Shown here piece after piece: positions 20,912 through 39,964 of a DNA stretch of 64,000 bases; position 1 is the stretch's first letter, and each line of letters opens with the position of its first letter. The translations under genes and the position numbers were made by a program. The DNA is taken from contig CAVTSX010000008.1 in assembly GCA_963737425.1 (NCBI GenBank), positions 353,681-417,680 of the forward strand. Reading direction: 5' to 3'. The notes below the pieces were generated by a model that saw only the letters and a list, made by a program, of their open reading frames with translations, searched no databases and was not told the origin of the DNA. Origin of the DNA: an uncultured Actinomycetota bacterium. Its GTDB lineage: Bacteria; Actinomycetota; Actinomycetes; Mycobacteriales; Jatrophihabitantaceae.

Positions 20912-22458
20912 ACAATGCCGTCCGGATAGCCCGCCGGTGGTGGCGTCGGCTGATCAGCATGCGTACGGCGCTGGTGCTGCTGTTCCTGCTGGCCCTCGCT
21001 GCCGTGCCGGGTTCGTTGCTTCCGCAGCGTCCGCTGAATCCGACCAAGGTCGACGCCTACCTCAAATCCCACGGTGCCTGGGGTCGCCTGCTCGATCGCC
21101 TCGGCATGTACGACGTCTTCGGCTCGGCGTGGTTCGCGGCCATCTATCTGCTGCTTTTCGTGTCGCTGGTCGGCTGCCTGATCCCGCGCATCCGGGTGCA
21201 CGGCCGCGCCATGCTCGCCAAGCCGCTGCGCGCGCCGAAGAATCTCGATCGGTTGCCTGAGTCCGGACGCTTCGACAGCGGCGACTCGGCGGAGGAGTAC
21301 GCCCGTGCTGCCCGGGCGGTACTCGGGCGCCGCTGGCGGGTCACGCGCCGCGACGAGCCGTCCGGGGCGATCACGCTCTCGGCCGAGAAGGGCTACAGCC
21401 GCGAGACCGGCAACCTGATCTTCCACATCGGGCTGCTGACCGCCTTGATACTGATCGCGGTCGGGCGGCTGTACCACTACGAAGGGTCGATCATCGTCCA
21501 GCAGGGGCAGGGCTTCTGCAACGTCGTGACGTCCTACGACTCGTGGCGGCCCGGACGCCTCGCTGCCGAGGGCAAAATCGGGCCCGCACCGTTCTGCGTC
21601 GACAACCTCGACCGGTTCACCGCCGACTACCTGCCAGACGGCGAGGCGTCCCAGTTCTCCGCCGCCGTCACGTACTCGCTCGGCGCGGACGGCCAGCCGC
21701 GGCATCACGTCATCTCCGTCAACCACCCGCTGCGGCTCGAAGGCGATCGCCTTTACCTGATCGGACACGGCTACGCGCCGAAGATCACCGTGCGGATGCC
21801 GGACGGCTCGGTGCGCCACGACCAGGCGGCGTTCATTCCGACGCAGCCCGAGACGCTGCTTTCCGAGGGGGCGTTCCAGGAGCAGGGCAAGCCGGACGCC
21901 AACCAGGACATCGGCATCGAGGGCTTCTTCGCGCCGACCCCGCTGAACACGGGCAACGGTGTCATCACGTCGGCCGCGCCGCAGGCCAACAACCCGGTGC
22001 TCGGCATCTTCATTTACCAGGGCGCGCTGAACCCGAACGGTTTGCCCCAGTCCGTCTACACGCTGAACAAGACGAAGCTGCACCGGATCGGGCAGGCGAA
22101 TCTGAGTATCGGGCAGACGACGCGCCTGCCGAACGGGGTCACCGTCACCTTCGACGGCTGGGTTCCGTGGGCCAGCATGCAGGTCTCGCACGATCCGACG
22201 CAGGGCTACCTGCTGATCGCGGCGGTGGCGATGGTGGTCGGGCTCATCGGCTCGCTGGGCATCCGAAGGCGGCGGCTGTGGCTGCGCATCACCCCAGCGG
22301 CCGCTGAGAATGAGGCCTCGCCTACCGTTGTTTCGGTGGGCGGGCTCGCCCGCAGCGACTCGGGCAACTTCACGACGGAGTTCGCCGGCATTCTCGAACG
22401 GCTCCGAGCCGCCGCGACGGTCGCCGAACCCAACCTGATTAGTGCAGGGAAGGAGTGA
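20908..22458 (+). CDS. resB: Cytochrome c biogenesis protein ResB (Ccs1)
   Basis: GTG start with GTGA overlap on the ccdA stop. WWRRLISMRTALVLLFLLALAAVPGSLLPQR N-terminus typical of ResB. The 733-aa track ORF begins inside ccdA in another frame and is rejected. Confidence 0.9.
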   Translation: MNNAVRIARRWWRRLISMRTALVLLFLLALAAVPGSLLPQRPLNPTKVDAYLKSHGAWGRLLDRLGMYDVFGSAWFAAIYLLLFVSLVGCLIPRIRVHGRAMLAKPLRAPKNLDRLPESGRFDSGDSAEEYARAARAVLGRRWRVTRRDEPSGAITLSAEKGYSRETGNLIFHIGLLTALILIAVGRLYHYEGSIIVQQGQGFCNVVTSYDSWRPGRLAAEGKIGPAPFCVDNLDRFTADYLPDGEASQFSAAVTYSLGADGQPRHHVISVNHPLRLEGDRLYLIGHGYAPKITVRMPDGSVRHDQAAFIPTQPETLLSEGAFQEQGKPDANQDIGIEGFFAPTPLNTGNGVITSAAPQANNPVLGIFIYQGALNPNGLPQSVYTLNKTKLHRIGQANLSIGQTTRLPNGVTVTFDGWVPWASMQVSHDPTQGYLLIAAVAMVVGLIGSLGIRRRRLWLRITPAAAENEASPTVVSVGGLARSDSGNFTTEFAGILERLRAAATVAEPNLISAGKE

Positions 22459-23519
22459 CGGTGGCAGTCAACTCGGGGCTCGCACACCTGTCCGACGGGC
22501 TGTTCACGACAGCCATCGCGACCTACTCGCTGGCCATGGCGTGCTACACGGCCGAGTACGCCTTCGGCCGCCGGGGGCGGGTGGCCCAGACCTCGCAGGT
22601 CGCCGAGCCTGCCCGCGTGCTCGTGGGTGCCGGTGGCCCGGCTGTCGATGATGCGCCGTCTGGGGGGCGGTCTTCCGGACCGTCTGCAGGGCCGCCTGCT
22701 GAGCGATCTGCTGCGCCGCCCGCCCAGGAGGCAGGCCGCGCCGCAGGTGATCGCTTCGGGCGGTTCGCCGTCACGCTCACCGTGTTGGGTGCGATCATCC
22801 ACACCGCCTCGGTCGCGCTGCGCGGCATCGCCGTCGACCGCGTGCCATGGGGCAACATGTACGAGTTCTCCGCCGTGGTTGGGCTGATCGCGGTGGTGGC
22901 GTTCCTCGGCGCGTTATGGCGGGCGCCGCAGATCCGCTACCTCGGCCTGTTCGTGATGCTGCCGGTCATATTGATCATGTTCCTGGCCGGCACGGTCCTG
23001 TACGCCAAGGCCGAGCCGCTCGTGCCGGCTCTGCAGTCGTACTGGCTGGCCATCCACGTCTCGGCGGCCGCCAGTTCCGAGGGCATCCTGATGACCAGTG
23101 CCGTCATCACCATGCTGTTCCTCATCCGCCAGCGCTACGACGTCGCGTCCAAGCAGCCCGGACGGCGCATAAGGTTCCCGGTTTCGCTCGGGGCCCGGCT
23201 GCCCGCGCCGGCCACGCTCGACAAGGTGGCCTACCGCACCGTCGCCTTCGCCTTCCCGATTTACACGTTCGGTGTCATCGCCGGCGCGATCTGGGCCGAG
23301 GCCGCGTGGGGGCGCTACTGGGGCTGGGACCCCAAGGAGACGTGGGCGTTCATCGCGTGGGTCATCTACGCCGCGTACCTGCACGCGCGCGCAACGGCCG
23401 GCTGGAAGGGTCGCGCCGCCGCCTGGATCAACCTGCTCGGCTTCGCCGCGATGACCTTCAACTTCTTCGTCGTCAACATCGTCATCTCCGGGCTGCACTC
23501 CTACGCCGGCCTGAACTAG
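22455..23519 (+). CDS. ccsB: c-type cytochrome biogenesis protein CcsB (ResC)
   Basis: Haem-handling WWD motif WGRYWGWDPKETW. GTGA overlap with resB. Pro/Ala/Gly-rich insert after TM1. Confidence 0.9.
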   Translation: MTVAVNSGLAHLSDGLFTTAIATYSLAMACYTAEYAFGRRGRVAQTSQVAEPARVLVGAGGPAVDDAPSGGRSSGPSAGPPAERSAAPPAQEAGRAAGDRFGRFAVTLTVLGAIIHTASVALRGIAVDRVPWGNMYEFSAVVGLIAVVAFLGALWRAPQIRYLGLFVMLPVILIMFLAGTVLYAKAEPLVPALQSYWLAIHVSAAASSEGILMTSAVITMLFLIRQRYDVASKQPGRRIRFPVSLGARLPAPATLDKVAYRTVAFAFPIYTFGVIAGAIWAEAAWGRYWGWDPKETWAFIAWVIYAAYLHARATAGWKGRAAAWINLLGFAAMTFNFFVVNIVISGLHSYAGLN

Positions 23520-26607: not shown

Positions 26608-28584
26608 CTACCCGCCCGTGCTCGACGCCAGGTCGTACACCGTCGTGTTGCCGACCGCCTGGGCCGTGAACGTCGAGGTGATCCATTGCTGGATCTGGTA
26701 CGCCGTCGAGGATTGCGCGTTGCCCGAGCCGATGAAGCCTGACGCGTCCGCTACGTAGTAATGCACCTTTCCTTGCGCCACCAGTTGTTTGAACGCGCTG
26801 AGCGAGATTGCCGGGTCAGTGCCGTTGTAGCCGCCGAGCGACATCGCCGCCTGGCCGGTGCCCAGCTCGAGCGAGGCCGCCTCGTTGTCGCCGGTCGTCG
26901 CGGCAACCCAGCGGTAGGCACCGGCATTGGCCGTGAGCAGTGCCTTGAGCGAGGCGTCTACCGTCGACGCGCCGCCGAGACCGCCGCCGCCCATCGCGCC
27001 GCCGCCCATCGCGCCGCGGCCGGTCCCGAGGCCGCCTGGTGCTAAGCCCGGATTGCCGCCGGGCGCGCCCTGTCTCGTGCCGGGTGGCCCGTTCCGGGGT
27101 CCACCGGGTCCGCCGCCGAAGGTGCTGGATGCCGGCCCGGCACTCGGAATCGCGCCGGTGTGTGCGGTAGAGGCGGTCTGCAGCGAGTACGCGACCGGCC
27201 CAGCGAGCAGTGCGACGGCGACGGTCGTCGCCACGAGCCGGGCCGAACGAGCCGCGAGTACAGCGCCGACTGCGGCGGCGCCCGCGAGCAGAACGACCCA
27301 GCGCAGCCAGGGCGTCCAATCGCTGCGGCCGAGAAGTTCGAAAGTCCACCAGCTTGCGGCCGCCACGAGCGCTGCGAGCGTCAGCCGCGCTCCCTCGCTG
27401 TGGCGTGACCGCCAGAGCGTGGCCACACCCAGGCCGACCAGGGCAGCGATCGCCGGTGCCAATGCCACTGTGTAGTACGGGTGGATGATCCCGCTCGCGA
27501 AGCTGAGCACGGCGCCGGTGACGAGCAGCCAGCCACCCCAGACGATGAGACTCGCCCGTAACGCGTCGGTACGCGGACGGCGGGCGGTCAGCCAGGCCAG
27601 GGCGGCGATCGCGACGAGAGCCGCAGGCAACAACCAGCTGATCTGCGCACCCATTTCGGTGCCGAACAGCCTGGTCAGGCCGGTCTGTCCGGACGAGAAG
27701 CCACCGGTTCGGCCGCTGACGTTGCCGTTGTTGCTCGTCCCGTCCAACCGGCCGAGTCCGTTGTAGCCGAACGTCAACTCCAGGATGCTGTTGCCGTTCG
27801 AACCGCCGATATAAGGACGGGATCCGGCTGGCCACAACTCGACGAGCGCAATCCACCAACCGGCCGCGACGATCATCGTGCCGAGCGCTGCCGTGAGGTG
27901 CCCGACCCGGCGCCAGGGGGTGGTCGGGGCCGCGACCAGATAGGCAGCGCCGAGGCCGGGCACGACGAGCAGGCCCTGCAGCATCTTGGTGAGGAACGCG
28001 AAGCCGATCAGCGCTCCGGCGAGCATGAGCCAGCGCGCGCTTGCTCGCTCCGTCGCCCGTACCGTGGCGTATGCAGCCGCCGTCATCAGCAGGACGAGCA
28101 GCGCATCGGGGTTGTCGAAGCGGAATATCAGCGTCGCCACCGGCGTGGCTGCCAGAATCGCGCCGGCGAGCAACCCGGCAGTGGGCGTCGACACTCTCCG
28201 TACTGCGGCGTACAGAAGTGCGACAGCGGCCATGCCTTCCAATGCCTGTGGAACAAGGATTGACCACGAGCTCAACCCGAAGAGCCGGACCGAGAGGTCC
28301 ATGACCCATAGCGAGGCAGGCGGCTTGTCGACGGTGATGAAGTTCGACTGGTCGAGGGAGCCGAACAGGAATGCCGTCCAGCTCTTGCTGCCCGACTGGG
28401 CGGCGGCCGCGTAGAACTGATTCGCCCACCCGGATCCGGACAGACCCCACGTGTACAGCGCGGCCGTCGCGGTAAGCAGCACGGCCAACGCCGGTGGGCA
28501 CTTACGCCGCAGGTGGGCACTTGCAAGTGCCCACCTGGACGCGAACTGCCCACCCGCGGGGGGAGCGGCGAGCCTCGTGGTCAT
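26608..28584 (-). CDS. Glycosyltransferase family 39 (ArnT/PMT-like) membrane protein with extracytoplasmic C-terminal domain, paralogue 1
   Basis: WANQFYAAAAQSGSKSWTAFLFGSLDQSNFITVDKPPASLW, multiple TM segments, Gly/Pro-rich linker. ATGA overlap with paralogue 2. Codons 10-31 are repeat copy C. Confidence 0.85.
   Translation of the reverse strand: MTTRLAAPPAGGQFASRWALASAHLRRKCPPALAVLLTATAALYTWGLSGSGWANQFYAAAAQSGSKSWTAFLFGSLDQSNFITVDKPPASLWVMDLSVRLFGLSSWSILVPQALEGMAAVALLYAAVRRVSTPTAGLLAGAILAATPVATLIFRFDNPDALLVLLMTAAAYATVRATERASARWLMLAGALIGFAFLTKMLQGLLVVPGLGAAYLVAAPTTPWRRVGHLTAALGTMIVAAGWWIALVELWPAGSRPYIGGSNGNSILELTFGYNGLGRLDGTSNNGNVSGRTGGFSSGQTGLTRLFGTEMGAQISWLLPAALVAIAALAWLTARRPRTDALRASLIVWGGWLLVTGAVLSFASGIIHPYYTVALAPAIAALVGLGVATLWRSRHSEGARLTLAALVAAASWWTFELLGRSDWTPWLRWVVLLAGAAAVGAVLAARSARLVATTVAVALLAGPVAYSLQTASTAHTGAIPSAGPASSTFGGGPGGPRNGPPGTRQGAPGGNPGLAPGGLGTGRGAMGGGAMGGGGLGGASTVDASLKALLTANAGAYRWVAATTGDNEAASLELGTGQAAMSLGGYNGTDPAISLSAFKQLVAQGKVHYYVADASGFIGSGNAQSSTAYQIQQWITSTFTAQAVGNTTVYDLASSTGG
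28492..28555. repeat. 64-bp dyad element, family 1, copy C (in frame, 5' end of GT39 paralogue 1)
   Basis: CGGTGGGCACTTACGCCGCAGGTGGGCACTTGCAAGTGCCCACCTGGACGCGAACTGCCCACCC. The centre at 28511-28536 is a perfect 26-bp palindrome. Read in the gene as GGQFASRWALASAHLRRKCPP. Confidence 0.9.
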
Positions 28585-30590
28585 GAGGTGGCCGTCGTCA
28601 GGTCGTAGACGGTGGATGCACCGACGGTGGTTGCCGTGTAGTTCGCCGCGACCCAGTTGGCGATCTCGCTGTTACCGCCGCCCGGACCGCCCCCGCCGGC
28701 CGCTATGTAGTAGCTGATGTCGCCCGCCGCGACGTATGCCTTGAACTGCGCGAGGGTGGGCGCCGGGTCCGAACCGCTCCAGCCACCGATTGCCATGACG
28801 GCCTTGCCGCTCGCCAGTTCGAGTGACGCGGCGCTCTGGTCCCCAACGGTCGCTGCCGCCCAGCGGGTAGTCGCCTTTTTGAGCAGGCTGGTCAGGGCCG
28901 AATTCGCGGTACTGCCGCCCGAGCCGCCCGTGCCTCCCGTGCCGCCCGTGCCGCGACTCGGCAAGCTGCCGCTCGGTGGCGTGCCGCCTTGCCCGCCGCC
29001 CGGTGCGCCGCTCGGTGGTGTGCCCCTTTGCGTGCCGCTCGGTGGCGTGCCGCCTTGCCCGCCGCCCGGCGCACCGCCCAGACCTCCTCGTGCGTCACCG
29101 ATGCCCGAAGTCACTGCCGGCCCCGCCGAGGGCGTGCTGCCGTTGTGGGGTGCAGCGGCCGTACTCAGCGCATACGCCGACGACGCGCCGGTGGCGACGA
29201 CCAGTCCGACGACGCCGACGGCCATGGCGCCGCGAGCCAGCCGTTGTGGCGGCACGAGCAGCGCGACGGCAGTGCCGAGGGCGAGCACGAGCAGCAGTGG
29301 GCGCAGCCACGGGTTCCAATCAGGTGAGCGCGAAAGCAGTTCGAAGCTCCACGCTCCGGTCGCCGCGACGCCGGCCGCGAGGGCCACGCGGGCGCCGAGG
29401 CGGGATCGGTTGCGCCACATGACGACCGAGCCGACGCCGACCAGCGCGGCGATCGGCGGTGCCAGTTCAACGGTGTAGTAGGGATGGATGATGCCGCCCG
29501 CATAGCTCAGCACCAGGCCGGTGACAACGAGCCAGCCACCCCAGAGCACAGCTGCAGCGCGCACCTTGTCGACGCGTGGCGTCCCCCGGCTGATGACAGC
29601 CAGCGCGACGAGCGCGATCAATGCTGCTGGCAGCAACCAGGAGATCTGCGTGCCCATTTCGGAGTTGAACAGCCGGCCCGGCCCGGCGGGACCGCTGAAG
29701 TTCGGCCCGCCTCCGCCGCCTGCACTGCCCGTCTCGTCGCCGGTGATGCGGCCGAGCCCGTTGTAGCCGAAGGCAAGGTCTAGCGCGCTGTTGTTCTTCG
29801 AGCCGCCGATGTATGGACGATCCGACGCCGGCCACAGCGCGACGGCAAGCACCCACCAGGCCGCTCCCGCGGCAAGCGCGACGCTCGCTGCGAAAAGGTG
29901 CGCGAGTCGCCGGCGCAGGGTGCCGTTCGAGGCGAGGAGGTAGAACAGCGCCAGAGCGGGTAGCACGGTGAACGGCTGCAGGCCCTTGGTGAGGAAGTTC
30001 AGGCCCATGACGCCGCCCGCCAGCAGCATCCACCGCAGCCGACCGTCGTCCACTGCGCGGGTGACGAAATAGGCCGCCGCGACAAGGAGAAGCGTCATCA
30101 GGGCGTCTGGCTGGTCGAACCGAAACATCAGGACGGCCACCGGGGTGACGGCGAGCAGGCCGCCGGCGATGAGACCGGCGACCGGCCCGAACCATCTCCG
30201 TACCGTGGCGTATAGAAGCGCTACGGCTAGGACTCCCTCAAGGGCCTGCGGCACCAGCAGGGTCCAGCTGTTGAAGCCGAAGAGCCGTCCGGCCAGCTCC
30301 ATCGGCCAAAGCGACAGCGGTGGCTTGTCGACGGTGATGAAGTTCGACTGGTCGAGCGATCCGAAGAAGAACGCCTTCCAGTTCTTCGTTCCCGCCTGGA
30401 CGGCGGCGGCGTAGAACTCGTTGCCGTATCCCGAAGCCGAGAGCCCCCACAGGTAGAGCAGCGCCGTCGCGCCGAGCAAAGCTACCAACGTGGGTGGGCA
30501 CTTACGCCGCAGGTGGGCACTTGCAACTGCCCACCTGCGCGGCAACTGCCCACCGGTGGAGGGGGCGGGCGGCGTCAATACAGCAGTCAT
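28581..30590 (-). CDS. Glycosyltransferase family 39 (ArnT/PMT-like) membrane protein, paralogue 2
   Basis: YGNEFYAAAVQAGTKNWKAFFFGSLDQSNFITVDKPPLSLW. ATGA overlap with the GT2 gene stop. Codons 12-33 are repeat copy D. The GTPPSG-repeat linker sits before the C-terminal domain. Confidence 0.85.
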   Translation of the reverse strand: MTAVLTPPAPSTGGQLPRRWAVASAHLRRKCPPTLVALLGATALLYLWGLSASGYGNEFYAAAVQAGTKNWKAFFFGSLDQSNFITVDKPPLSLWPMELAGRLFGFNSWTLLVPQALEGVLAVALLYATVRRWFGPVAGLIAGGLLAVTPVAVLMFRFDQPDALMTLLLVAAAYFVTRAVDDGRLRWMLLAGGVMGLNFLTKGLQPFTVLPALALFYLLASNGTLRRRLAHLFAASVALAAGAAWWVLAVALWPASDRPYIGGSKNNSALDLAFGYNGLGRITGDETGSAGGGGGPNFSGPAGPGRLFNSEMGTQISWLLPAALIALVALAVISRGTPRVDKVRAAAVLWGGWLVVTGLVLSYAGGIIHPYYTVELAPPIAALVGVGSVVMWRNRSRLGARVALAAGVAATGAWSFELLSRSPDWNPWLRPLLLVLALGTAVALLVPPQRLARGAMAVGVVGLVVATGASSAYALSTAAAPHNGSTPSAGPAVTSGIGDARGGLGGAPGGGQGGTPPSGTQRGTPPSGAPGGGQGGTPPSGSLPSRGTGGTGGTGGSGGSTANSALTSLLKKATTRWAAATVGDQSAASLELASGKAVMAIGGWSGSDPAPTLAQFKAYVAAGDISYYIAAGGGGPGGGNSEIANWVAANYTATTVGASTVYDLTTATS
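28971..29069. repeat. 33-bp tandem repeat (3 units, outer two identical) in the GT39 paralogue 2 linker
   Basis: GCTCGGTGGCGTGCCGCCTTGCCCGCCGCCCGG at 28971-29003 and 29037-29069, with a diverged unit between them. It encodes the GGTPPSG-type repeats. Confidence 0.85.
30492..30555. repeat. 64-bp dyad element, family 1, copy D (in frame, 5' end of GT39 paralogue 2)
   Basis: GGGTGGGCACTTACGCCGCAGGTGGGCACTTGCAACTGCCCACCTGCGCGGCAACTGCCCACCG. Read in the gene as GGQLPRRWAVASAHLRRKCPP. Confidence 0.9.
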
Positions 30591-31804
30591 GACGCGTCCT
30601 TCCGAGAGGCGAAGACCCAGTGCCGCAGCAGGACGAATCGCAGCACGGTGGCGGCGAGGTTCGCCGCGACCAGCACCGTGACCTCGATGAGTCGAGGCGG
30701 ATCGGCGTACGCATGGGCAAGCAGGGCAAGGGAGCCGCTCGTCAGCGCAAGGCCGAGGCCGAACACGACCAGGCCCTGCGCCTGGTGGCGGGCAACGCCG
30801 TCCGCGCCGACCACGCCGAACGTAAACCGGCGATTGGCCGCCGTGTTGGCGACAGCAGTGAGCAGCAAGGCAGCGAGATTGGCCGCCTGGGCTCCGAGCG
30901 GGGCGCGTAGCAGCAAGAACAGCACGAGGTACGCGATCGTCGACAGAACGCCGATCGAAGCGAAGCGAATCGCCTGCCAGGAAAGGGGTTTCGGCACCCC
31001 GGGCACGTCGATCGGATGCCGGCCGAATTGCCGGCGCAGGTCCCGCAGCGGCAGCGCGCCGGTGGCGAACGCGCGCCCGAGTCGCGCAACGCCGCGCAGA
31101 TCGGCAAGAGCGGTAGCCGCGATATCCACGCGGCTGTCCGAGTCGTCGATCCAGTCGACCGGTATCTCGGCGATTCGCAGTCCAGTGCGTTCAGCGAGCA
31201 CGAGCAGTTCGGTATCGAAGAACCATCCCGTGTCATGCACATGGGGCAGCAGGGCACGTGCGCAGTCGGCACGCATCGCCTTGAAGCCGCATTGCGCGTC
31301 GGAGAACCGAGCATGCAACGCCATACGCAGAAGCAGGTTGTAGCAGCGGGAGATCAGCTCGCGCTTCGGACCGCGCACGACACGGGCCGAGCGAGACAGC
31401 CGGCTGCCAATTGCGACGTCGCTGTGTCCCGACATGAGTGGCGCGACCAACGGCAGCAACGCGGAGAGGTCGGTGGAAAGGTCCACGTCCATATAGGCGA
31501 CGACTGTTGCAGTGCTGACGGACCACACATCGCGCAGTGCCCGACCGCGTCCCTTGGCATTGAGGTGCTTGACGCGAACGTCGGGGTATTCAGCGGCCAA
31601 CGCGTACGCACGGGGCAGAGTCGCGTCCGTGCTGGCGTTGTCGGCGATCGTTATCAACGTGCTGAATGGGAATTGCTCGAGGTACTGGTGCAGCCGGCGG
31701 ATGCAGGGCTCGAGGTCTTCCTGCTCGTTATGCACCGGGACGACGATCTCGACATCGACCGTGCCTGCCTCAGTCGGTCCGCGTACTTCGCGCAACGCGT
31801 GCAT
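30587..31804 (-). CDS. GT2 polyprenyl-phosphate glycosyltransferase fused to a GtrA-like membrane domain
   Basis: VEIVVPVHNE, ITIADNASTD and VAYMDVDLSTD GT2 motifs. C-terminal GtrA-like TM region (TAVANTAANRRFTFG). ATG at 31804 with GGTGGA SD. A GTG at 31813 directly abuts the ferredoxin stop and is an alternative start. Confidence 0.85.
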   Translation of the reverse strand: MHALREVRGPTEAGTVDVEIVVPVHNEQEDLEPCIRRLHQYLEQFPFSTLITIADNASTDATLPRAYALAAEYPDVRVKHLNAKGRGRALRDVWSVSTATVVAYMDVDLSTDLSALLPLVAPLMSGHSDVAIGSRLSRSARVVRGPKRELISRCYNLLLRMALHARFSDAQCGFKAMRADCARALLPHVHDTGWFFDTELLVLAERTGLRIAEIPVDWIDDSDSRVDIAATALADLRGVARLGRAFATGALPLRDLRRQFGRHPIDVPGVPKPLSWQAIRFASIGVLSTIAYLVLFLLLRAPLGAQAANLAALLLTAVANTAANRRFTFGVVGADGVARHQAQGLVVFGLGLALTSGSLALLAHAYADPPRLIEVTVLVAANLAATVLRFVLLRHWVFASRKDAS

Positions 31805-31813
31805 GAGATCCAC

Positions 31814-32008
31814 CTATCGAGTCGTCAGCCGCAGGGCAAGCGCGGGGCACAAGGCGACGGCACGCCGGGTGTCACGCTCGGCGCCGTGCGACACGGGCTT
31901 CGCCGCGATGATCGGGTAGCCCCACTCGTCGCGAGTGATCTGCGCCGGCAACAGTTCTGCGCACAGGCCGTGGCCGTCGCAGCGGGTCCAGTCGATGTCA
32001 AGTTTCAC
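31814..32008 (-). CDS. Small ferredoxin
   Basis: GTG start (VKLDIDWTRCDGHGLCAELLP...AVALCPALAL) with GTGA overlap on the NuoF-like stop. Single-cluster ferredoxin Cys pattern. Confidence 0.7.
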   Translation of the reverse strand: MKLDIDWTRCDGHGLCAELLPAQITRDEWGYPIIAAKPVSHGAERDTRRAVALCPALALRLTTR

Positions 32009-33228
32009 GGTGTCACCTCGAGAAATCCGCGGACGGGTCTCCCGCATCCGCCATAGGTCAGGTGTGTCTCGATCTCCTGACGCAGAGCCCGCAGTCCCGA
32101 CATGACGAAACGCGAGGCGCCGCCAGGGTGGTGGCAGGCGCCGCGGCCGTCGACGAGTTGCGCATGGCGGGCCGCGGCGGCAAGACCCTCGCGGGTACCA
32201 GCCGTCAGGGCCGCGATGTCACGTGCGAGGGCAGGCAGGCCGAAGTGGCAAGGCCCGCATTGATGCGCCGACTGGGCCGCCAGCCAATCGGCTACCCGGG
32301 TCAATTCGCCAAGCGCACACGTGCTGCTGTCAAGTACTTGCAGGACGCCTGCTCCGAGAGTGCCGTTGGCTTCGCCCACGCCGGCGCGGGACAGCCGCAT
32401 CTGTGGCAGCGGAGGGTGCCATGTTCCGTGGTATCCGCCGATGACCAGGGTCTGCGGATCAACGGCTCCCGCCGCGGATAGGACGATGCCGAGCGGTGTG
32501 CCCAGCGGGATCTCGACTACACCCGATCGGGTCACGGCACCGCCGATGGTGAGCAGCGTCGTGCCGGGCTCGGCAGTCGTCCCCGTGTCGCGGAAACGGT
32601 GCGCCCCCAGCCGCAATGCCACGGCGATATGGGCGAAAGTCTCGGCGTTGGAGAGCAACGTGCCGTGTTCGGTGAGGTGGACGCGGCGGCCCGGGGGGAG
32701 TGCCGGGCCGCCGCCGAGTCCTCGCACGAGCGCGCGCGCCTCGCCTGAGACGAACCCGCCGAGGACGCTTTCGACGCGAACCTTCGACGCGTCGTGACGC
32801 CGGCCGATAGCCCGCTGCACACTCACGCCGGCATCGGCGTCGTGCACCGCGACCGTCACGGTTCGAGCGCCGATTGCGGCGGCGACCGCCAGCGCGCCGT
32901 CGAGAACGAGGTGCGGCGTGCGGCGAAGTAGCGTGCGGTCCTTGAAGCTCGCCGGCTCGCTCTCACTGCCGTTGACGACAATCGCGCCGTTCCGCTCGGG
33001 CATTGCACGAAGCTTGGTCGCGAACGGGAATCCAGCGCCGCCACGTCCGGTCAGCGCGATCGACTCGAGAAGCGCGGTCAGGCGGGCCCTGTTCGTTTGC
33101 GGCATCGCGCCGTGCACCGCGAGGTGCGCGGCGTGGTCGACGGATTCGTAGCTGTCGAGCCCGGCCAGCAGTCGCGGCGCGCCGATCGCCCAGGGACGGG
33201 TGGTGGGGGCGACAAGGGTGGCGGTCAT
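32005..33228 (-). CDS. NuoF-like protein (NADH-ubiquinone oxidoreductase-F Fe-S binding region family)
   Basis: GRGGAGFPFATKL FMN/NADH-site motif, NGSESEPASFKDR, C-terminal Cys cluster SAHQCGPCHFG...GACHHPGG. Start MTATLVAPTT with ATGA overlap (33225-33228). Confidence 0.8.
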   Translation of the reverse strand: MTATLVAPTTRPWAIGAPRLLAGLDSYESVDHAAHLAVHGAMPQTNRARLTALLESIALTGRGGAGFPFATKLRAMPERNGAIVVNGSESEPASFKDRTLLRRTPHLVLDGALAVAAAIGARTVTVAVHDADAGVSVQRAIGRRHDASKVRVESVLGGFVSGEARALVRGLGGGPALPPGRRVHLTEHGTLLSNAETFAHIAVALRLGAHRFRDTGTTAEPGTTLLTIGGAVTRSGVVEIPLGTPLGIVLSAAGAVDPQTLVIGGYHGTWHPPLPQMRLSRAGVGEANGTLGAGVLQVLDSSTCALGELTRVADWLAAQSAHQCGPCHFGLPALARDIAALTAGTREGLAAAARHAQLVDGRGACHHPGGASRFVMSGLRALRQEIETHLTYGGCGRPVRGFLEVTP

Positions 33229-33785
33229 CGCATCGCTCCTACGACGACGCCGCGCCGGGCCTGCCCGCCCAGCCGCACTGCCACCGAGGCGATCACTGCG
33301 ATGAGGCACATCGCCCACAGCGTCCGAACCCAAGCCAGGCTCGCGTCAGTTCCGGCCGTCAGCCCGTGCAACATCGCGAGAGCCCAGCCTCCATACGCCA
33401 GCGCATGGATGCCGCGCCAGACCGCCGCACCACGGGCCGATGCCGCGAGACGTCCGCGCGCAAAGCCCAACGCGGCGATCGCGATGAAGAGGTAGGCCGC
33501 GATCGAACCGAGCGCCACCGCGTTCGGCCGGTATGCCGCTGCGAATGGGACGAGGGCACCGCGCACACCGACGCCCGCGTGCGCGTCGGCGAGAACCGTA
33601 CCCAGGTGTACGGCGATCAGGCCGAGCCCGAGTGCCGCCGCGGCGCGGTGCATGTACTGCATGACCACGCGCGTCGACGCCGAACGGATCTTCACCGATG
33701 TGAGAGCGCCCAGCGATGTCGCCAGTGTCAGCGCGACGAGCGCCGCCAGTCCAGCCCCACGTGCCGTGTACCAGAGTGTCATCAC
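33225..33785 (-). CDS. Ferric-reductase-like transmembrane (di-haem b type) protein
   Basis: Six hydrophobic segments. Two His pairs spaced 13-14 residues apart in TM helices (HRAAAALGLGLIAVH and HALAYGGWALAMLH), as in FRD/NOX/MsrQ-type haem ligation. Confidence 0.75.
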   Translation of the reverse strand: MMTLWYTARGAGLAALVALTLATSLGALTSVKIRSASTRVVMQYMHRAAAALGLGLIAVHLGTVLADAHAGVGVRGALVPFAAAYRPNAVALGSIAAYLFIAIAALGFARGRLAASARGAAVWRGIHALAYGGWALAMLHGLTAGTDASLAWVRTLWAMCLIAVIASVAVRLGGQARRGVVVGAMR

Positions 33786-34696
33786 GCCACCGCCGCCGCT
33801 GCGTGTTCCGGCCAGCCGGCTGTCGTGTGCACTTGCCCGTCGACGCCGACCAGCCGGGCGGCCAGGTGCCGAGCGGTCAGCCAGTCGACGGCGTCCTCTC
33901 CGAGGACGATGGCCGCCGTGCTGGCAATGTTCGCGGCCAGCGCGAGAGGTGCGTACACCGAGGCCGTCCGCCAGGGTCCGTCCGCCGGTGCGCCGGTGCG
34001 TGGGTCGATGATGTGATGGACGTTCTGCTTGCCGCGCTGCCAGGTTCTGACCGTCGTGGTCGAAGTGGTCAGGCCACCGTGCCGGAGTACGACGGTCTGC
34101 CCAGGCGCGTCCTCGCGTTCGGCCACCCGCACGGGCCAGCCGCCGCGCGGATCGCCTGCGACAGCGATATCGCCGCCCAGTTCGACGAGCACGGCCGTGC
34201 TGTAGCGCCGGGACAGCGCACGTGCCGCGTGATCGGCGGCGTACGCCTTGGCGGTCGCGCCCAGGTCGAGGGCAACTCCGACCGGGACGATGAGCAAGCC
34301 AGCCTCGCGATACAGCCGCACGTCCTGCCAGCTACGTGCCTGGGGGCACGCGTCGATCGCCGGTCCTTGGGCGGGGATATCGGCGATGTCGCAGTCGTAG
34401 CCGATGCGGTGCATCGCGAGGCCGACAGTTGGGTCGACGGCGCCACCGGTCTGGTCGGCTCCGTCGAGAGATGCCTTGACGAGATCAGCGAGCATGCGGG
34501 GCACCGGCACCGGGCGTCCCGCGTTGGCATTGGCGATCGAAAGGTCCGAGTCCGGGCGGAATCTGCTGGCCATGCGGTCGATCCGGTCGAGCAATGCCCG
34601 AAGATCAGCGGCGGCCGGAGCGAGCGCCCGGCGGTCCTCGACGACGAGCCGCACCGTGCAGCTCCACGTCCGAAACACATGGGTGTGCGTACTCAT
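33782..34696 (-). CDS. apbE: FAD:protein FMN transferase ApbE
   Basis: ASRFRPDSDLSIAN, LDLGATAKAYAADHAA, GGDIAVAG, HHIIDPRTG - classic ApbE motifs. Confidence 0.9.
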   Translation of the reverse strand: MSTHTHVFRTWSCTVRLVVEDRRALAPAAADLRALLDRIDRMASRFRPDSDLSIANANAGRPVPVPRMLADLVKASLDGADQTGGAVDPTVGLAMHRIGYDCDIADIPAQGPAIDACPQARSWQDVRLYREAGLLIVPVGVALDLGATAKAYAADHAARALSRRYSTAVLVELGGDIAVAGDPRGGWPVRVAEREDAPGQTVVLRHGGLTTSTTTVRTWQRGKQNVHHIIDPRTGAPADGPWRTASVYAPLALAANIASTAAIVLGEDAVDWLTARHLAARLVGVDGQVHTTAGWPEHAAAAVA

Positions 34697-34983
34697 GATC
34701 CATTGCTCCCGCCCACGGTGGTCGAGCTCTGGCTACCTGCGCTGAGCCCGCTGTTGTTGCTGGACGACGTGGCGGCGCTTGTCGGTGTGCTGCTCGTCGG
34801 GGTGCTCGTGGTCGAATTGTTCGACGTCGTGGTGGTGGTCGTGGTCGTGCCTGCCGGCTGCGCAGCGGAGTGTCCGACCGCCGAGACGAGCGTTGCGGTG
34901 AGCGCGACGCCGGCTGAGCCGATCCCAAAGGCGGCAAGACCGGCGCGGTTCAGCAGGCGCCTGGTCGGAGGTTGTGTCGTCAT
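34693..34983 (-). CDS. Tat-signal, Thr/Ser-rich 96-aa secreted mini-protein
   Basis: MTTQPPTRRLLNRAGLAAFGIGSAGVALTATLV (twin-Arg signal) followed only by low-complexity TTTTTTTTSNNSTTSTPTSSTPTSAATSSSNNSG... ATGA overlap with apbE. It occupies the slot where an FMN-binding-domain protein would be expected. Confidence 0.55.
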   Translation of the reverse strand: MTTQPPTRRLLNRAGLAAFGIGSAGVALTATLVSAVGHSAAQPAGTTTTTTTTSNNSTTSTPTSSTPTSAATSSSNNSGLSAGSQSSTTVGGSNGS

Positions 34984-35123: not shown

Positions 35124-36461
35124 CTACGGCGGGCCCAGCTCCAGCGTGATCTGCGCCCCGCCCGACGGCGAGCGTCCCACGCGCAGGGAGCCACCCGACG
35201 TTTCGGCGCATTGCCGGGCGATGTCGAGGCCCAACCCGCTTGAGCCGCGGTCGCTACGGCCGCGCTCGCCGGCGCCTTCGGGCAATCCGGGGCCTTCGTC
35301 GCTTACGACGAGGGTTGCTCCGCTCTCCGACGCGGCCAGGGTCACCGCGAACGGCGTGCCCTCCGGGGTATGCGCAATGACGTTCTCCAGCAGGGCATCG
35401 ACCGCCGCCGCCAGGTCTTCGGCCGATGCTCGCACCGGAAGCGGAGAGTCCGGCAGCGAGATCTCGCGGTGTCGCTCCTGATCGTCGGCCAGCGCCGACC
35501 AGAAGCTGACCCGCGATGCGACGACTGACGTCGCGTCGGCCGAGGGCAGCAGCCCTTCACGTTGGGGCCGGCGGGCAGCGCGGATCACGGCGGTCAGGGT
35601 GCGCTCCAGCGACGTGACGTGCGCTCCGATCCGCTCGGCCTCATCGGCGTCGCGTAGCCCTTCGGCGTCCAGACGAAGGGCCGTCAACGGCGTACGCATG
35701 CGGTGCGACATGTCGGCGACGGTCTCGCGCTCTTCGGCGATGAGTTCGTCGATGCGATCGGCGAGCAGGTTCAGCGCCGATCCGACCTCGGCGATCTCGC
35801 GCGGGCCCGACGTGGGCGCCCGCGCCGTGACGTCGCCGGTGCTGAGCCGCCGGGCCGTCTGCGCGGTACGCACCAGCGGCGCAACGATTCGCCGGGTCAG
35901 CAACTCCCCGCCGATCACCCCGATCAGGAGCAGCCCGACGCTGCCCGCCGCGATCAGCGCGTACCAGCGTCCGACGCCGTTGTTGAGCGAATTGGTGGAC
36001 GCGAACACGCTGATCCGATAGGTGCCAGTCGGGATGCGCGTGAAGAGCTCGGCGACCTTGCCGCCTGGCACGTTGCGCAACTGGGCGTTGTTGGGCGGCG
36101 GTCCGCGAACGGGGCCGGTTCCTTCGCCGGACGTCTCCGCGGGATTTCCCGCACCCTCGTCGGACGGACGCGGGCCGGCGTTGTCGCCCTCTCGCTCGGT
36201 GCCGAGGACGGTCCCGTCGGGCATCTGCACCGACGTGCTGCGATTGTCGTCTTGCTGGAGCTTGTCCAGATAGGTCGTGATCGTGCTCGTGGTCGGGGTG
36301 CCGGTACCGAGGAATTGCGCGACGGACTGAGCCTGATCGCGGATCGAACGCTCGCCGCGCTGCTCCACCGCCGAGCGCACCATCAGCGCCACCGGCACCG
36401 CGAAAGCCAACACCACGAGGACGGTGATGCCGGTGACGAGCAACAGGATCCGGCGTCGCAT
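35124..36461 (-). CDS. Sensor histidine kinase (two TM, HAMP, HisKA, HATPase_c)
   Basis: H-box ADMSHRMRTPLTAL, N/G boxes (LLENVIAHTP, VSDEGPGLP, GSSGLGLDIA). Immediately follows the response regulator (TGAATG). Confidence 0.85.
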   Translation of the reverse strand: MRRRILLLVTGITVLVVLAFAVPVALMVRSAVEQRGERSIRDQAQSVAQFLGTGTPTTSTITTYLDKLQQDDNRSTSVQMPDGTVLGTEREGDNAGPRPSDEGAGNPAETSGEGTGPVRGPPPNNAQLRNVPGGKVAELFTRIPTGTYRISVFASTNSLNNGVGRWYALIAAGSVGLLLIGVIGGELLTRRIVAPLVRTAQTARRLSTGDVTARAPTSGPREIAEVGSALNLLADRIDELIAEERETVADMSHRMRTPLTALRLDAEGLRDADEAERIGAHVTSLERTLTAVIRAARRPQREGLLPSADATSVVASRVSFWSALADDQERHREISLPDSPLPVRASAEDLAAAVDALLENVIAHTPEGTPFAVTLAASESGATLVVSDEGPGLPEGAGERGRSDRGSSGLGLDIARQCAETSGGSLRVGRSPSGGAQITLELGPP

Positions 36462-37148
36462 TCAGGCCTCGGGCGCCGCGAGCCGCACGCCGACCCCACG
36501 GACGCTGTGCAGGTACCGCGGATGCTTGGCCGATTCGCCGAGCTTGCGACGCAGCCACGACAGGTGCACGTCGACTGTGCGGTCCGAGCCGCCCCAGGCG
36601 AGCTGCCAGACCTCGGCGAGCAGATCGCGTTTCGTGACGACCTCGCCGGGGTGGCGGGCGAGGGCGAGCAGTAGGTCGAACTCCTTGCGGGCAAGTTCGA
36701 CCGGCTGGTTGTCGAGGCTGACCTCGCGGCTGCGGGTGTCGATATGCAGCCCGCCCAACACGATCGTCGGATCCTCTTCCTCGGCACGACCGGAGCGGCG
36801 CAGCACCGCCCCGATCCGCGCGTTCAGCTGTGCCGCCGTGAACGGCTTGATCACGTAGTCGTCCGCGCCGAGGTTGAGCAGTCGCACCACATCGGCCTCG
36901 TCGTCTCGCGCCGTCGCGATGATCACCGGGACATCGCTGACGGCGCGCAGCATCGAGAGCACGTCCGCGCCGTCGATGTCGGGAAGCCCCAGATCGAGCA
37001 GGACGACGTCCGGGCGCTGTTCGACCGCGGCCGTCAGCGCCGGCATACCCGAGCCCACGCTTGTGACGACGTGCCCGTGATCGTGCAGGGAGCGGGTCAG
37101 GGCAACGCGTATCGCCGCGTCATCCTCGACCAGCAGCACCTGCGGCAT
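36462..37148 (-). CDS. OmpR/PhoB-family response regulator
   Basis: MPQVLLVEDD...DVVLLDLGLPDIDG receiver domain. C-terminal winged helix (EFDLLLALARHPGEVVTKRDLL...VDVHLSWLRRKL). Start at 37148 avoids overlap with the upstream gene. The track start at 37205 is an alternative. Confidence 0.9.
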   Translation of the reverse strand: MPQVLLVEDDAAIRVALTRSLHDHGHVVTSVGSGMPALTAAVEQRPDVVLLDLGLPDIDGADVLSMLRAVSDVPVIIATARDDEADVVRLLNLGADDYVIKPFTAAQLNARIGAVLRRSGRAEEEDPTIVLGGLHIDTRSREVSLDNQPVELARKEFDLLLALARHPGEVVTKRDLLAEVWQLAWGGSDRTVDVHLSWLRRKLGESAKHPRYLHSVRGVGVRLAAPEA

Positions 37149-37155
37149 CGAGGTG

Positions 37156-37515
37156 CTAGCGCTGCGGTTCGTCGCCGTCGGGACGGTCGCGACGGATGTC
37201 GTCATTGAGCCGGCGCAGGAACTCGGGGTCGTCGTCCGGCGCGATCGATCGTCGCGACGGACCCGCGGACGAGCCGGAGTGGCCCTGCCAGCCGAAGGGA
37301 GACCGCGGAGCGCGCACGTTCACCGATGCGCGTGGCCGGCCCCAGATGAACCAGGCGATGGCGCCGATGTCGAGCAGCAGCAGGACGATGATCAGCCAGA
37401 TCGCCTTGGGCAGGGTGCGGATGCGCTCAGCCGGCGCGGTGAGAGCGTCGAAGATTGCGTACAACCATGCAAGAACCGCGATCAGGGTGAATACGCCGCC
37501 GAGCCGGATGAACAT
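37156..37515 (-). CDS. Small membrane protein with PLD-nuclease N-terminal (PLDc_N) type domain
   Basis: MFIRLGGVFTLIAVLAWLYAIFDAL...LPKAIWLIIVLLLLDIGAIAWFIWGRP, two TM helices and a basic/acidic tail. Confidence 0.65.
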   Translation of the reverse strand: MFIRLGGVFTLIAVLAWLYAIFDALTAPAERIRTLPKAIWLIIVLLLLDIGAIAWFIWGRPRASVNVRAPRSPFGWQGHSGSSAGPSRRSIAPDDDPEFLRRLNDDIRRDRPDGDEPQR

Positions 37516-37568
37516 GCGTCCAGCGTATGCCTCCACAGCCGGGAGAGCCTTAGGCCGATACTGACGGG

Positions 37569-39032
37569 GTGGGATTCACGGATTTGCAGGATTTTCTGGC
37601 CGCGCTCGAGCGTGATGGCGATCTCGCGCGGGTGCGCGTACCCGTCGACCCCCACCTCGAGGTGACCGGCATAGTGCAGCGAGCCGTACGCGAGCAGGGC
37701 CCCGCCCTGCTGTTCGAGAACCCCACCCGCGGGCGGCTCCCGCTCGCGATCAACGTCTTCGGTACGCAGCGGCGCATGGCGCGCGCACTCGGCGTCGATC
37801 ATCTGGACGAGATCGGCGAGCGCATCGGCGAACTCCTCAAGCCCGAGTTGCCCCGCGGCATCGGCGGGCTGCGCGACGCGCTGGGCAAGGCGGCCCAGCT
37901 GCGCGCTGCCCCACCGCGGCGGGTGAAGGTCGCCCCGGTGCAGGAGATGGTCTACAAGGACGACGAGGTTGATCTCGCCATCCTGCCCGGCATCAAGGCA
38001 TGGCCCGACGACGGCGGGGTGTTCCTCAATCTGGGTCTGACCCATACGAAGCATCCCGAGACGGGCGCGCGAAATCTGGGCATGTACCGCCTGCAGATGC
38101 ACGACCAGCGCACGGTCGGGCTGCACTGGCAGATCCACAAGGACTCCACCTCGCACGCCGCGATCGCCGAGCGGCTCGGCGAGCGGCTGCCGGTGGCGAT
38201 CGCGTTCGGCTGCCCGCCCGCGGTCACGTACGCGGCGAGCGCGCCGCTGCCCGCCGACATCGACGAGTACCTGTTTGCCGGCTTCGTGCGGCGCGAACGC
38301 GTCGAACTCGTCGACTGCCTGTCCGTTCCGCTACAGGTGCCCGCTGCGGCGCAGGTCGTCCTCGAAGGATGGGTGACGCCTGGCGAGCGCCTGCCCGAGG
38401 GGCCGTTCGGCGACCACACCGGTTTCTACACGCCGGTCGAGCCGTTCCCGTTCATGCGGGTCGAGACGATGACGATGCGGTCCGACGCCGTCTACCAGTC
38501 GATCATCGTGGGCCGCCCGCCCCAGGAGGACGGCCCGATCGGCAAGGCGACCGAACGCATCTTCCTTCCCTTGCTGCGATTGACGATTCCCGAGATCGTC
38601 GACTACGACCTGCCCGAGGCAGGCGTCTTCCACAACTGTGTGATCGTGTCGATCGACAAGCGTTTCCCGAAGCACGCGCAGAAGGTGATGAACGCGATCT
38701 GGGGCGCGGGCCTGATGTCGTTGTCGAAGCTGATCGTCGTGGTCGACGCCGACTGCGATGTGCACGACTACGCCGAGGTCGCGTGGCGCGCGTTCGGCAA
38801 CGTCGACTACGCCCACGACGTGCAGCACACCGTCGGCCCGGTCGACCACCTCGACCACTCGTCCTACGAGCAGTTCTTCGGCGGCAAACTCGGGGTGGAC
38901 GCCACGCGCAAACTGCCGAGCGAGGGCTACCGCCGCGGCTGGCCGGCCGAGTGCGTGCTCGACGAGGCGACGACCGCCCGGGTTACGCGCCGCTGGAGCG
39001 AGTACGGCATCGGCCGCGGCGACAGCCGATGA
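37569..39032 (+). CDS. ubiD: UbiD-family decarboxylase (menaquinone late-step decarboxylase type)
   Basis: LQDFLAALERDGDLARV N-terminus, GMYRLQ, FGDHTGFY. Followed by UbiA- and UbiX-like genes. Confidence 0.9.
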   Translation: MGFTDLQDFLAALERDGDLARVRVPVDPHLEVTGIVQRAVREQGPALLFENPTRGRLPLAINVFGTQRRMARALGVDHLDEIGERIGELLKPELPRGIGGLRDALGKAAQLRAAPPRRVKVAPVQEMVYKDDEVDLAILPGIKAWPDDGGVFLNLGLTHTKHPETGARNLGMYRLQMHDQRTVGLHWQIHKDSTSHAAIAERLGERLPVAIAFGCPPAVTYAASAPLPADIDEYLFAGFVRRERVELVDCLSVPLQVPAAAQVVLEGWVTPGERLPEGPFGDHTGFYTPVEPFPFMRVETMTMRSDAVYQSIIVGRPPQEDGPIGKATERIFLPLLRLTIPEIVDYDLPEAGVFHNCVIVSIDKRFPKHAQKVMNAIWGAGLMSLSKLIVVVDADCDVHDYAEVAWRAFGNVDYAHDVQHTVGPVDHLDHSSYEQFFGGKLGVDATRKLPSEGYRRGWPAECVLDEATTARVTRRWSEYGIGRGDSR

Positions 39033-39964
39033 CCGACCCCGTTCGCGATGAGGTTGAGCAATCGCCCGGCCCAGGCGTGAAGGCCGGTCCTACGGGTGGC
39101 GTAAGGAAGTTCTTCCGGCTGGTCATGATCGAGCACTCGGTATTCGCCCTGCCGTTCGCCTACATCGCGGCGCTGACGGCGATGTGGAGTGAGAGCCGCT
39201 CGGTGCACTGGTGGGAGCTGGTGCTCATCACGGTCGCCATGGTGTCGGCTCGGACGGTGGCGATGAGCGCCAACCGCATCCTCGACCGCGGCTTCGATGC
39301 GCTGAACCCCCGTACCGCCAAGCGCGAACTGGTCACCGGCGAGATGTCGGTGCGTTCGGCGTGGACGGGCACTGTCGTCGCCCTGGTGGTGTTCCTGGCC
39401 TCGGCGGCTGCGCTGTCGTGGCTGTGCCTGGTGCTGGCGCCGGTCGCGGTCGGGCTGCTCGTCCTCTACTCGTACGGCAAGCGGTTCACCGACTTTCCGC
39501 AGGTGCTGCTTGCGCTTGCGCAGATGGTGGCACCGGTCGGGGCGTGGCTCGCCGTCACCGGGCAGCTGAGCTGGGCCTCGTTCGCCTTGGGCCTCGCGGT
39601 CGGCACGTGGATCGGCGGCTTCGATCTCATCTACTCCTGCCAGGACGCCGAGGTCGACCGGCGCATCGGCTCGCGCTCGTTCCCGGCACGGTTCGGCATT
39701 CCGGCCGCCTTGCGCGCGTCCGCGATCGTGCACGTCGGCACGTTCGCCTGCTTCGCATGGTTCGGTGCCGCCGCAGGTCTTGGCTGGTTGTGGTGGACGG
39801 GCCTGGCGCTCACCGCGGTCGTCCTCGCCTACGAGCACCGCATCGTCCGCGCCGACGACCTGAGCCGGGTGAACCGCGCGTTCTTCACCGCCAACGGCGT
39901 CATCGGCATCGGACTGTTCGGGTTCGCTCTGGCCGACCTGATCGTCCAAGGGCTGGGCGCATGA
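39029..39964 (+). CDS. ubiA: UbiA-family aromatic prenyltransferase (menaquinone prenylation type)
   Basis: ATGA overlap with the ubiD stop. IEHSVFALPFAYIAAL, NRILDRGFDALNPRT (NxxxD motif), CQDAEVDRRIG (second Asp-rich motif). Confidence 0.85.
   Translation: MTDPVRDEVEQSPGPGVKAGPTGGVRKFFRLVMIEHSVFALPFAYIAALTAMWSESRSVHWWELVLITVAMVSARTVAMSANRILDRGFDALNPRTAKRELVTGEMSVRSAWTGTVVALVVFLASAAALSWLCLVLAPVAVGLLVLYSYGKRFTDFPQVLLALAQMVAPVGAWLAVTGQLSWASFALGLAVGTWIGGFDLIYSCQDAEVDRRIGSRSFPARFGIPAALRASAIVHVGTFACFAWFGAAAGLGWLWWTGLALTAVVLAYEHRIVRADDLSRVNRAFFTANGVIGIGLFGFALADLIVQGLGA

Follow-up and report, generated by a model that had tools for sequence, protein, structure and literature searches.

A predicted NOX-like electron exporter made of separate proteins, encoded with an ApbE-family protein and a small secreted peptide in an actinobacterial operon

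MsrQ-like flavinylation-associated systems were defined in Méheust et al. 2021, eLife, and include 31 clusters with a NuoF-like PF10589 protein; NAD(P)H was inferred as the electron donor for the systems with such partners (PMC8238504). Here we describe a related operon in a 64-kb stretch of DNA (hereafter the window; ~69% G+C) on contig CAVTSX010000008.1 of an uncultured soil actinobacterium of the Jatrophihabitantaceae. The operon encodes an ApbE-family protein, a five-helix membrane protein predicted to be a di-haem b cytochrome, a NuoF-like flavoprotein, a small ferredoxin and a small secreted peptide. As in the published MsrQ-like systems, which are likewise actinobacterial and functionally uncharacterised, ApbE adjoins a membrane protein of the ferric-reductase-domain superfamily in which two haem sites are predicted, and NAD(P)H is proposed to enter through a NuoF-like protein (PMC8238504). 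The operon is a variant of MsrQ-like/ApbE systems with a NuoF-like donor, a published but biochemically uncharacterised kind. A preliminary description of this DNA had called the combination uncharacterised; this holds for its biochemistry, whereas the association of MsrQ-like/ApbE systems with NuoF-like proteins was already in print (PMC8238504).

The operon differs in several features from the published description of MsrQ-like systems. MsrQ-like clusters typically carry a gene for a protein with an FMN-binding domain, and this operon has none. The ApbE encoded here lacks a signal peptide, whereas in the published pipeline a target gene had to carry either such a peptide or a lipidation site. 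The operon also encodes a ferredoxin and a small, conserved secreted peptide with an S-x-G-S tail, neither of which is among the partners given in the MsrQ-like section of that paper. The same work used PF01794 as its defining key, a threshold below which the membrane protein of the window falls (PMC8238504).

The Escherichia coli MsrQ–MsrP system with Fre, a ‘two-component NOX-like system’ (Juillan-Binard et al. 2017, as cited in PMC8238504), likewise has a haem protein separate from a soluble cytoplasmic flavin reductase and delivers electrons across the membrane. By contrast, the donor here is a NuoF-like protein with a ferredoxin instead of Fre or quinol, no MsrP is encoded, and the membrane protein has a five-helix core with all four NOX-type histidines. 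The NOX enzymes (NOX5, structure 5o0t, and SpNOX) share with the operon the Hx13H and Hx12H spacing on two helices and the route proposed here, from NAD(P)H through a flavin and two haems to the outside, and NOX5 is the best structural match of our membrane protein. Unlike NOX, the system has no fused FNR-type domain for FAD and NADPH, Fe–S carriers are interposed, the first NOX helix is missing and O2 is no more than a possible acceptor. Flavin-based extracellular electron transfer in Listeria (Ndh2, EetA/B, PplA and FmnB) is also a Gram-positive path from NADH to the outside with an ApbE-flavinylated extracytoplasmic carrier, of which our operon holds a candidate. The Listeria system differs in crossing the membrane via quinone and not haems, in its ApbE, FmnB, which is a secreted lipoprotein needing exported FAD, and in its carrier PplA, which has folded FMN-binding domains.

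The redox core of the operon and the peptide gene that precedes it consist of the following genes:

34693..34983, minus strand: secreted Ser/Thr-rich peptide, 96 aa; no Pfam or NCBIfam match.
33782..34696, minus strand: ApbE-family protein (FAD:protein FMN transferase family), 304 aa; PF02424, E 4.5e-52.
33225..33785, minus strand: five-helix membrane protein, 186 aa, predicted di-haem b cytochrome; recognised by homologues that reach PF01794, by its fold and by four His.
32005..33228, minus strand: NuoF-like soluble flavoprotein, 407 aa; PF01512, E 3.6e-31, and PF10589, E 7.1e-12.
31814..32008, minus strand: single-cluster ferredoxin, 64 aa; PF13459 (Fer4_15), E 5.7e-12.

These belong to a run of 10 minus-strand genes spanning 37205 to 26608. 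All open reading frames (ORFs) named beforehand were confirmed at their coordinates, and domain matches bear out the four parts listed in the preliminary description (membrane protein, NuoF-like protein, ferredoxin and ApbE). The translational coupling that it had proposed, with ApbE directly upstream, is likewise seen: 4-nt overlaps (ATGA or GTGA) join the peptide gene to apbE, apbE to the membrane gene, the membrane gene to the NuoF-like gene and the latter to the ferredoxin gene. An alternative start for the membrane gene lies at ATG 33782, and database homologues are annotated as 185 aa; an alternative ferredoxin start at ATG 32047 would give 77 aa.

The membrane protein had been called ferric-reductase-like, with two pairs of histidines as candidate haem ligands. 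On its own it gives no match in Pfam or NCBIfam, even at E ≤ 10, and a profile of its family finds none among the sequences of solved structures. This profile, built from 23 homologues, was searched against 1.84 billion proteins and retrieved 4588 representatives at 50% clustering. PF01794 exceeded its gathering score in 8 of the 10 representatives scanned (28.7–40.1 bits against a cut-off of 28; profile E 1e-30 to 1e-36). Judged by these profile matches, the membrane protein belongs to the PF01794 superfamily transitively and not by direct match. The four His, in the pairs H46-x13-H60 and H127-x12-H140, show no variation in alignments of 23, 20 and 80 sequences, reaching down to 30% identity. 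The haem ligands of NOX and FRE proteins are spaced Hx13H and Hx12H, as are His101/115 and His209/222 of NOX2.

For the fold, we used an AlphaFold2 (AF2) model from the 80-sequence alignment, with a predicted local distance difference test (pLDDT) score of 94.9 and a predicted template modelling (TM) score (pTM) of 0.88. It replaces a model from a shallow alignment (pLDDT 76), which gave the same fold matches at lower confidence. The best Foldseek match is the transmembrane domain of NOX5 (5o0t; probability 1.00, TM 0.49, E 0.07), and further matches are STEAP2 (TM 0.58), cytochrome b561 (TM 0.58–0.60) and STEAP1, the top matches having probabilities of 0.99–1.00. The protein has five helices, compared with six in the ferric-reductase transmembrane domain, and terminates 14 residues past the last one. 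The charge distribution suggests an outside N terminus and an Arg-rich C terminus on the inside, and helices 1–5 would correspond to NOX helices 2–6. Two bis-His b haems are predicted, an inner one held by H46/H127 and an outer one by H60/H140. We place the protein in the ferric-reductase-domain superfamily because of the transitive PF01794 match, the invariant and characteristically spaced histidines and the AF2 fold. The His pairs proposed as ligands are thus conserved, being invariant in 23 and in 80 homologues; the ferric-reductase-like assignment is backed indirectly, by transitive PF01794 membership and the fold match to NOX5 (5o0t), and fails as a direct Pfam match.

Within the family, a longer subfamily of 340–390 aa (P0147-type; 8001-9161 in locus L063 and 7001-8050 in L068) is extended by a sixth helix, the conserved motif GPLxxGWARRAGTP and a β-rich extracytoplasmic domain of ~120 aa without a Pfam match. 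No conserved flavinylation motif was found in this C-terminal domain. Clusters of the longer subfamily retain the small peptide, with the tail SGGS. P0252 (L067 1506-3491) is a fusion of the membrane domain with a phosphodiesterase/nucleotide-pyrophosphatase-like domain; another gene of the latter kind is found close by, and the NuoF-like and ferredoxin genes are absent. Apparent fusions of ApbE with the membrane protein (P0182 and P0196) and of the membrane protein with NuoF (P0254) were considered as Rosetta-stone evidence and rejected, as their linkers and termini are Arg-rich and look out of frame; they are probably frameshifted gene calls from metagenomes and not true fusions.

Residues 58–395 of the NuoF-like protein align to solved NuoF, HydB and HoxF structures (E 1e-27 to 9e-32). 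The FMN loop GRGGAGFP, already singled out in the preliminary description, and the acidic motif of the NADH site, NGSESEPASFKDR, are both conserved and align to solved NuoF. The protein shares the FMN/NADH fold, the SLBB region and a C-terminal Fe–S helix bundle with NuoF (the 51-kDa subunit of complex I), HoxF, HydB, FdsB and RnfC, but neither NuoE nor NuoG accompanies it. Its score against the NuoF equivalog TIGR01959, whose cut-off is 558.65, is 145 bits, and by this measure it is not an orthologue of NuoF. Five cysteines, C304, C324, C327, C365 and C395, are conserved in 46 sequences. The C-terminal Cys cluster described earlier is therefore present in part: C324, C327 and C365 keep three of the four N3 positions, while Ala takes the place of the first Cys in the canonical CxxCxxC, a replacement that sets the protein apart from its NuoF relatives and leaves C304 and C395 available as conserved alternatives.

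The ferredoxin carries the motif C-x2-H-x2-C...C-P, in which none of C10, H13, C16 and C54 varies across 45 sequences. Its sole solved relative is the Mycobacterium tuberculosis ferredoxin with CYP143 (8amq). It is presumably of the actinobacterial 3Fe-4S type, whose members are ~60–70 aa long and carry CxxHxxC...CP, with His at the variable position.

A scan of one genome per species yielded 61 related loci, from Jatrophihabitantaceae, Pseudonocardiales, Nocardioides, Aeromicrobium, Cellulomonas and other Mycobacteriales; the counts given here use loci with enough flanking DNA. The NuoF-like gene directly follows the membrane gene in 46/52 loci, a ferredoxin gene comes after the membrane gene in 45/50, and apbE directly precedes it in 48/52. 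Co-conservation of both donor genes with the membrane gene, on which the preliminary description had made its proposal depend, was thus found. The same cassette surrounds the PF01794-positive long homologues in Pfam-annotated contigs, and it was also recovered when starting from the NuoF-like side. FNR-type domains (FAD_binding_8, NAD_binding_6 and NAD_binding_1) are absent, whether fused or neighbouring, from the operon and from the Pfam-annotated related loci; whether orthologous clusters always lack FAD_binding_8 and NAD_binding_6 was a check named in the preliminary description. Some genomes hold a pair of paralogous cassettes (L006 and L009, L020 and L041, L004 and L027, L038 and L045, L042 and L049); in these, one copy has the two-component system and glycosyltransferases, and the other is bare, with a variable neighbourhood.

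The ApbE-family protein aligns with solved ApbE/Ftp structures (E 2e-23). It keeps the catalytic His, within the conserved motif HHIIDPRTG, and the TS motif. It starts straight at the first β-strand, with an in-frame stop 12 codons upstream, and no signal peptide or lipobox was found in ApbE from ~50 loci or among the 120 homologues listed (264–335 aa); ApbE is accordingly short of any export signal and is predicted to be cytoplasmic. ApbE proteins can flavinylate 7-residue motifs at the C terminus of a protein, and cytoplasmic ApbEs exist (PMC12052999). Because cytoplasmic ApbEs are known, the missing signal is compatible with transferase activity. At residue 256, 52 of the 53 family members have Asn in place of the Asp of (D/E)-A-D-x3-T. 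By alignment, Asn256 would correspond to Asp285 of Vibrio cholerae ApbE, a conserved residue of the catalytic centre (PMC12052999).

The most constant partner of the membrane gene is the peptide gene, present in at least 46 of 51 loci and overlooked in the preliminary description. It always lies immediately 5′ of apbE, or of the membrane gene where apbE is absent. The N terminus of the peptide resembles a signal peptide, with TRRLLNR, a hydrophobic core and an AxA-type site at HSAA/Q. The middle is of low complexity, mucin-like and rich in Ser and Thr, and the C terminus is invariant: it reads GGSNGS-COOH here, while close relatives have GGS[N/H]GS-COOH and distant relatives SGGS or SHAS, giving a family tail motif of S-[N/H/G]-[G/A]-S-COOH. 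When the upstream ORF was picked by position alone, 47 ended in [ST]-x-[GAS]-S, and the only two others proved to be ApbE C termini at contig edges. The tail is retained where the membrane gene and not apbE comes next (L036, L044 and L046), and despite a switch of Ser codon family from AGC to TCG (L045 and L049). It resembles the flavinylation motif [S/T]GA[S/T].

Other readings of the small ORF were rejected. A detached signal peptide of ApbE, through a frameshift or split gene, is at odds with a stop conserved in ~50 loci, with the lack of any in-frame fusion among the 120 listed ApbE homologues and with the occurrence of the ORF before the membrane gene without apbE. The tail as a by-product of the Shine–Dalgarno sequence of apbE (GGGAG) does not fit the codon-family switch or the retention of the tail before a different gene. 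Nor is there support for the idea that the peptide provides, in trans, the first helix that the membrane domain lacks, as conserved AxA-like cleavage sites follow the hydrophobic segment.

The extracytoplasmic flavinylated acceptor of the preliminary description was not recovered in conventional form. Pfam finds no FMN_bind (PF04205), DUF2271 or DUF3570 protein in the operon, and the canonical motif D-x-x-[ST]-G-[AS]-[ST] occurs in no credible ORF of the window. The only ORF with the motif and a high G+C content at third codon positions is spurious, lying antisense to hemL. With low confidence, we instead put forward the peptide as candidate terminal acceptor and ApbE substrate. It is favoured as acceptor because its tail resembles the flavinylation motif, because C-terminal motifs can be modified, because no FAD export would be needed and because it would give ApbE a substrate.

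Taken together, these features suggest a modular NOX-like electron exporter assembled from separate proteins, a reading that we consider somewhat more probable than its negation for the steps from donor to haem. The cytoplasmic NuoF-like protein would oxidise NAD(P)H at its FMN and pass single electrons to its Fe–S cluster, as its conserved motifs suggest. Gene coupling and co-conservation point to the 3Fe-4S-type ferredoxin as the shuttle that would bring these electrons to the cytoplasmic side of the membrane protein. The electrons would then cross the membrane through the inner (H46/H127) and then the outer (H60/H140) b haem, consistent with the invariant His, their NOX-type spacing and the fold. 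On the outside, the leading candidate for the acceptor is the secreted peptide; the main alternative is that Fe(III) or O2 is reduced directly. Lacking a signal peptide, ApbE could transfer FMN to the secreted peptide while this is still in the cytoplasm, which would yield a tethered or soluble flavin acceptor after export; with modification before export, FAD export would not be needed. The peptide family may then be a minimal class of ApbE substrate, whose tail Ser receives FMN in the cytoplasm and which, once exported and possibly glycosylated, accepts electrons from the outer haem, a tentative idea that we hold to be rather doubtful.

A number of points weigh against this reading. Every step is drawn from homology, motifs and gene linkage. 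The membrane protein of the window itself fails PF01794, and its Foldseek E-values of 0.07–0.5 lie above 0.001 and are weak, leaving the ferric-reductase and b561 folds unseparated. The Fe–S site of the NuoF-like protein is non-canonical, no NuoE is encoded near its gene, and the ferredoxin is not acidic, so that there is no obvious electrostatic argument for docking. Some loci deviate from the full cassette: the ferredoxin gene occurs without a NuoF-like gene beside the membrane gene in L051 and L066, both are absent from L058, L061 and L067, and in L036, L044 and L046 the membrane gene is accompanied by the small ORF only, with no donor genes. From the loci lacking the NuoF-like gene or both donor genes, it follows that the NAD(P)H module, though common, is optional and that the ferredoxin is the closer partner. 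At the acceptor end, the tail reads S-N-G-S and so does not match the canonical D-x-x-[S/T]-G-A-[S/T], the peptide has no folded FMN-binding domain, the Asp-to-Asn change in ApbE may mean that the protein is not a transferase, and the last step would need export of a pre-flavinylated peptide, which is a proposal only.

The remaining genes of the operon lie on both sides of this core:

36462..37205, minus strand: OmpR-family response regulator, first gene of the unit; PF00072 and PF00486.
35124..36461, minus strand: sensor histidine kinase (HAMP-HisKA-HATPase) with 2 transmembrane segments; PF00672, PF00512 and PF02518.
30587..31813, minus strand: fusion of a GT2 glycosyltransferase and a GtrA-like membrane domain (polyprenyl-phosphate sugar synthase type); PF00535 and PF04138.
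28581..30590, minus strand: GT-C glycosyltransferase (PMT_2 and YkcB_C); PF13231 and PF24878.
26608..28584, minus strand: second GT-C glycosyltransferase (PMT_2 and YkcB_C), last of the coupled series; PF13231 and PF24878.

The best NCBIfam matches of the response regulator are CseB and MtrA, each under its own cut-off. The kinase start abuts the response regulator stop, and from the 96-aa ORF downstream each junction is a 4-nt overlap or a direct abutment: the ferredoxin stop abuts the start of the GT2-GtrA gene, which the first GT-C gene overlaps by 4 nt. A scan for promoters and terminators gave no signal exceeding chance, and the public sequencing runs consist of soil metagenome DNA, with no RNA among them. 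A two-component system lies upstream of the cassette in 22/44 loci, and also in L062, L063, L069 and L070; here it probably regulates the unit. The GT2-GtrA gene follows the cassette in 24/49 loci, sharing the operon here but standing outside the conserved redox core. We speculate that the glycosyltransferases co-translated here O-glycosylate the Ser/Thr-rich stretch of the peptide. Directly upstream of the response regulator gene and overlapping it, a small membrane protein with a PLDc_N domain is encoded (37156-37536, minus strand), also found in L062. The operon is flanked by genes for cytochrome c biogenesis (ResB/CcsA) and by UbiD/UbiA-family genes (20257-23519 and 37569-39964, both plus strand), a neighbourhood shared with L062 (Jatrophihabitans sp. 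GAS493), L069 and L070 and absent in more distant loci.

As an alternative, the same electron chain may finish in direct reduction, with the outer haem passing electrons to Fe(III), Fe(III)-chelates or O2, as in an assimilatory or dissimilatory ferric reductase or a NOX-like producer of superoxide, and with the peptide having no redox role, for example as a glycosylated wall-associated scaffold or as a ligand of the sensor kinase; we regard this as possible, though on the improbable side. The characterised superfamily members FRE, STEAP and NOX reduce Fe(III), Cu(II) or O2, the peptide gene directly follows the kinase gene, and the peptide tail is not a canonical flavinylation motif. Some MsrQ-like clusters are also linked to VIT1 iron transporters (PMC8238504). 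Yet the operon and its conserved neighbourhood contain no iron transporter or siderophore gene, direct reduction would leave the universally coupled ApbE without a substrate, and the peptide gene still pairs with the membrane gene in L036, L044 and L046, where the two-component system is absent.

An unlikely alternative changes the role of ApbE, which would not act as a transferase but would hold FAD as a cytoplasmic subunit docked on the membrane protein and pass electrons received from ferredoxin on to the inner haem, thus taking over the function of the NOX FAD domain; or it would flavinylate a cytoplasmic partner. The absence of a signal peptide from all homologues examined fits such a subunit, as do the Asn found at the transferase Asp position in 52/53 family members (a mapping inferred by alignment) and the more constant adjacency of ApbE than of the NuoF-like protein to the membrane gene. 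However, the catalytic His and TS motif are retained, no redox role is known for ApbE-bound FAD, and three loci have no adjacent apbE; a cytoplasmic target, for its part, would have to do without any conserved [S/T]GA[S/T]-like site in the NuoF-like protein, the ferredoxin or the cytoplasmic loops. Very improbable, in our estimate, is an MsrQ-like function in which the membrane protein trades electrons with the menaquinone pool and serves an extracytoplasmic reductase encoded elsewhere, or ResB/CcsA haem and cytochrome c maturation, while the NuoF-like protein and ferredoxin are accessory or feed a different reaction. The annotation of homologues as YedZ/MsrQ by JGI and the position of the locus between cytochrome c biogenesis genes and the prenyl-quinone genes of UbiD/UbiA type, as also in L062, L069 and L070, speak for it. 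This neighbourhood is lost, however, in more distant loci that keep the cassette, no MsrP-type molybdoenzyme is present among the ten operon genes or the scanned neighbours, and translational coupling argues that the NuoF-like protein and ferredoxin are a dedicated donor.

The export of cytoplasmic reducing power to the surface of Gram-positive cells is known in detail for few systems only, and the cassette described here is widespread in Actinomycetota, judged by the 4588 representatives of the membrane-protein family. The modular exporter would be a NOX-type haem conduit fed by Fe–S proteins instead of an FNR-type domain, and as a natural ‘split’ version it would lend itself to studying the entry of electrons into haems of the NOX type. 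If the peptide is not flavinylated, the system stays a candidate ferric or oxygen reductase under two-component control. If it is, the substrate range of ApbE would widen, some ‘orphan’ apbE genes would be explained and a compact natural flavin tag would be at hand. The peptide would also carry flavin with no FMN-binding domain, and would offer a means of placing covalent flavin outside a Gram-positive cell without FAD export.

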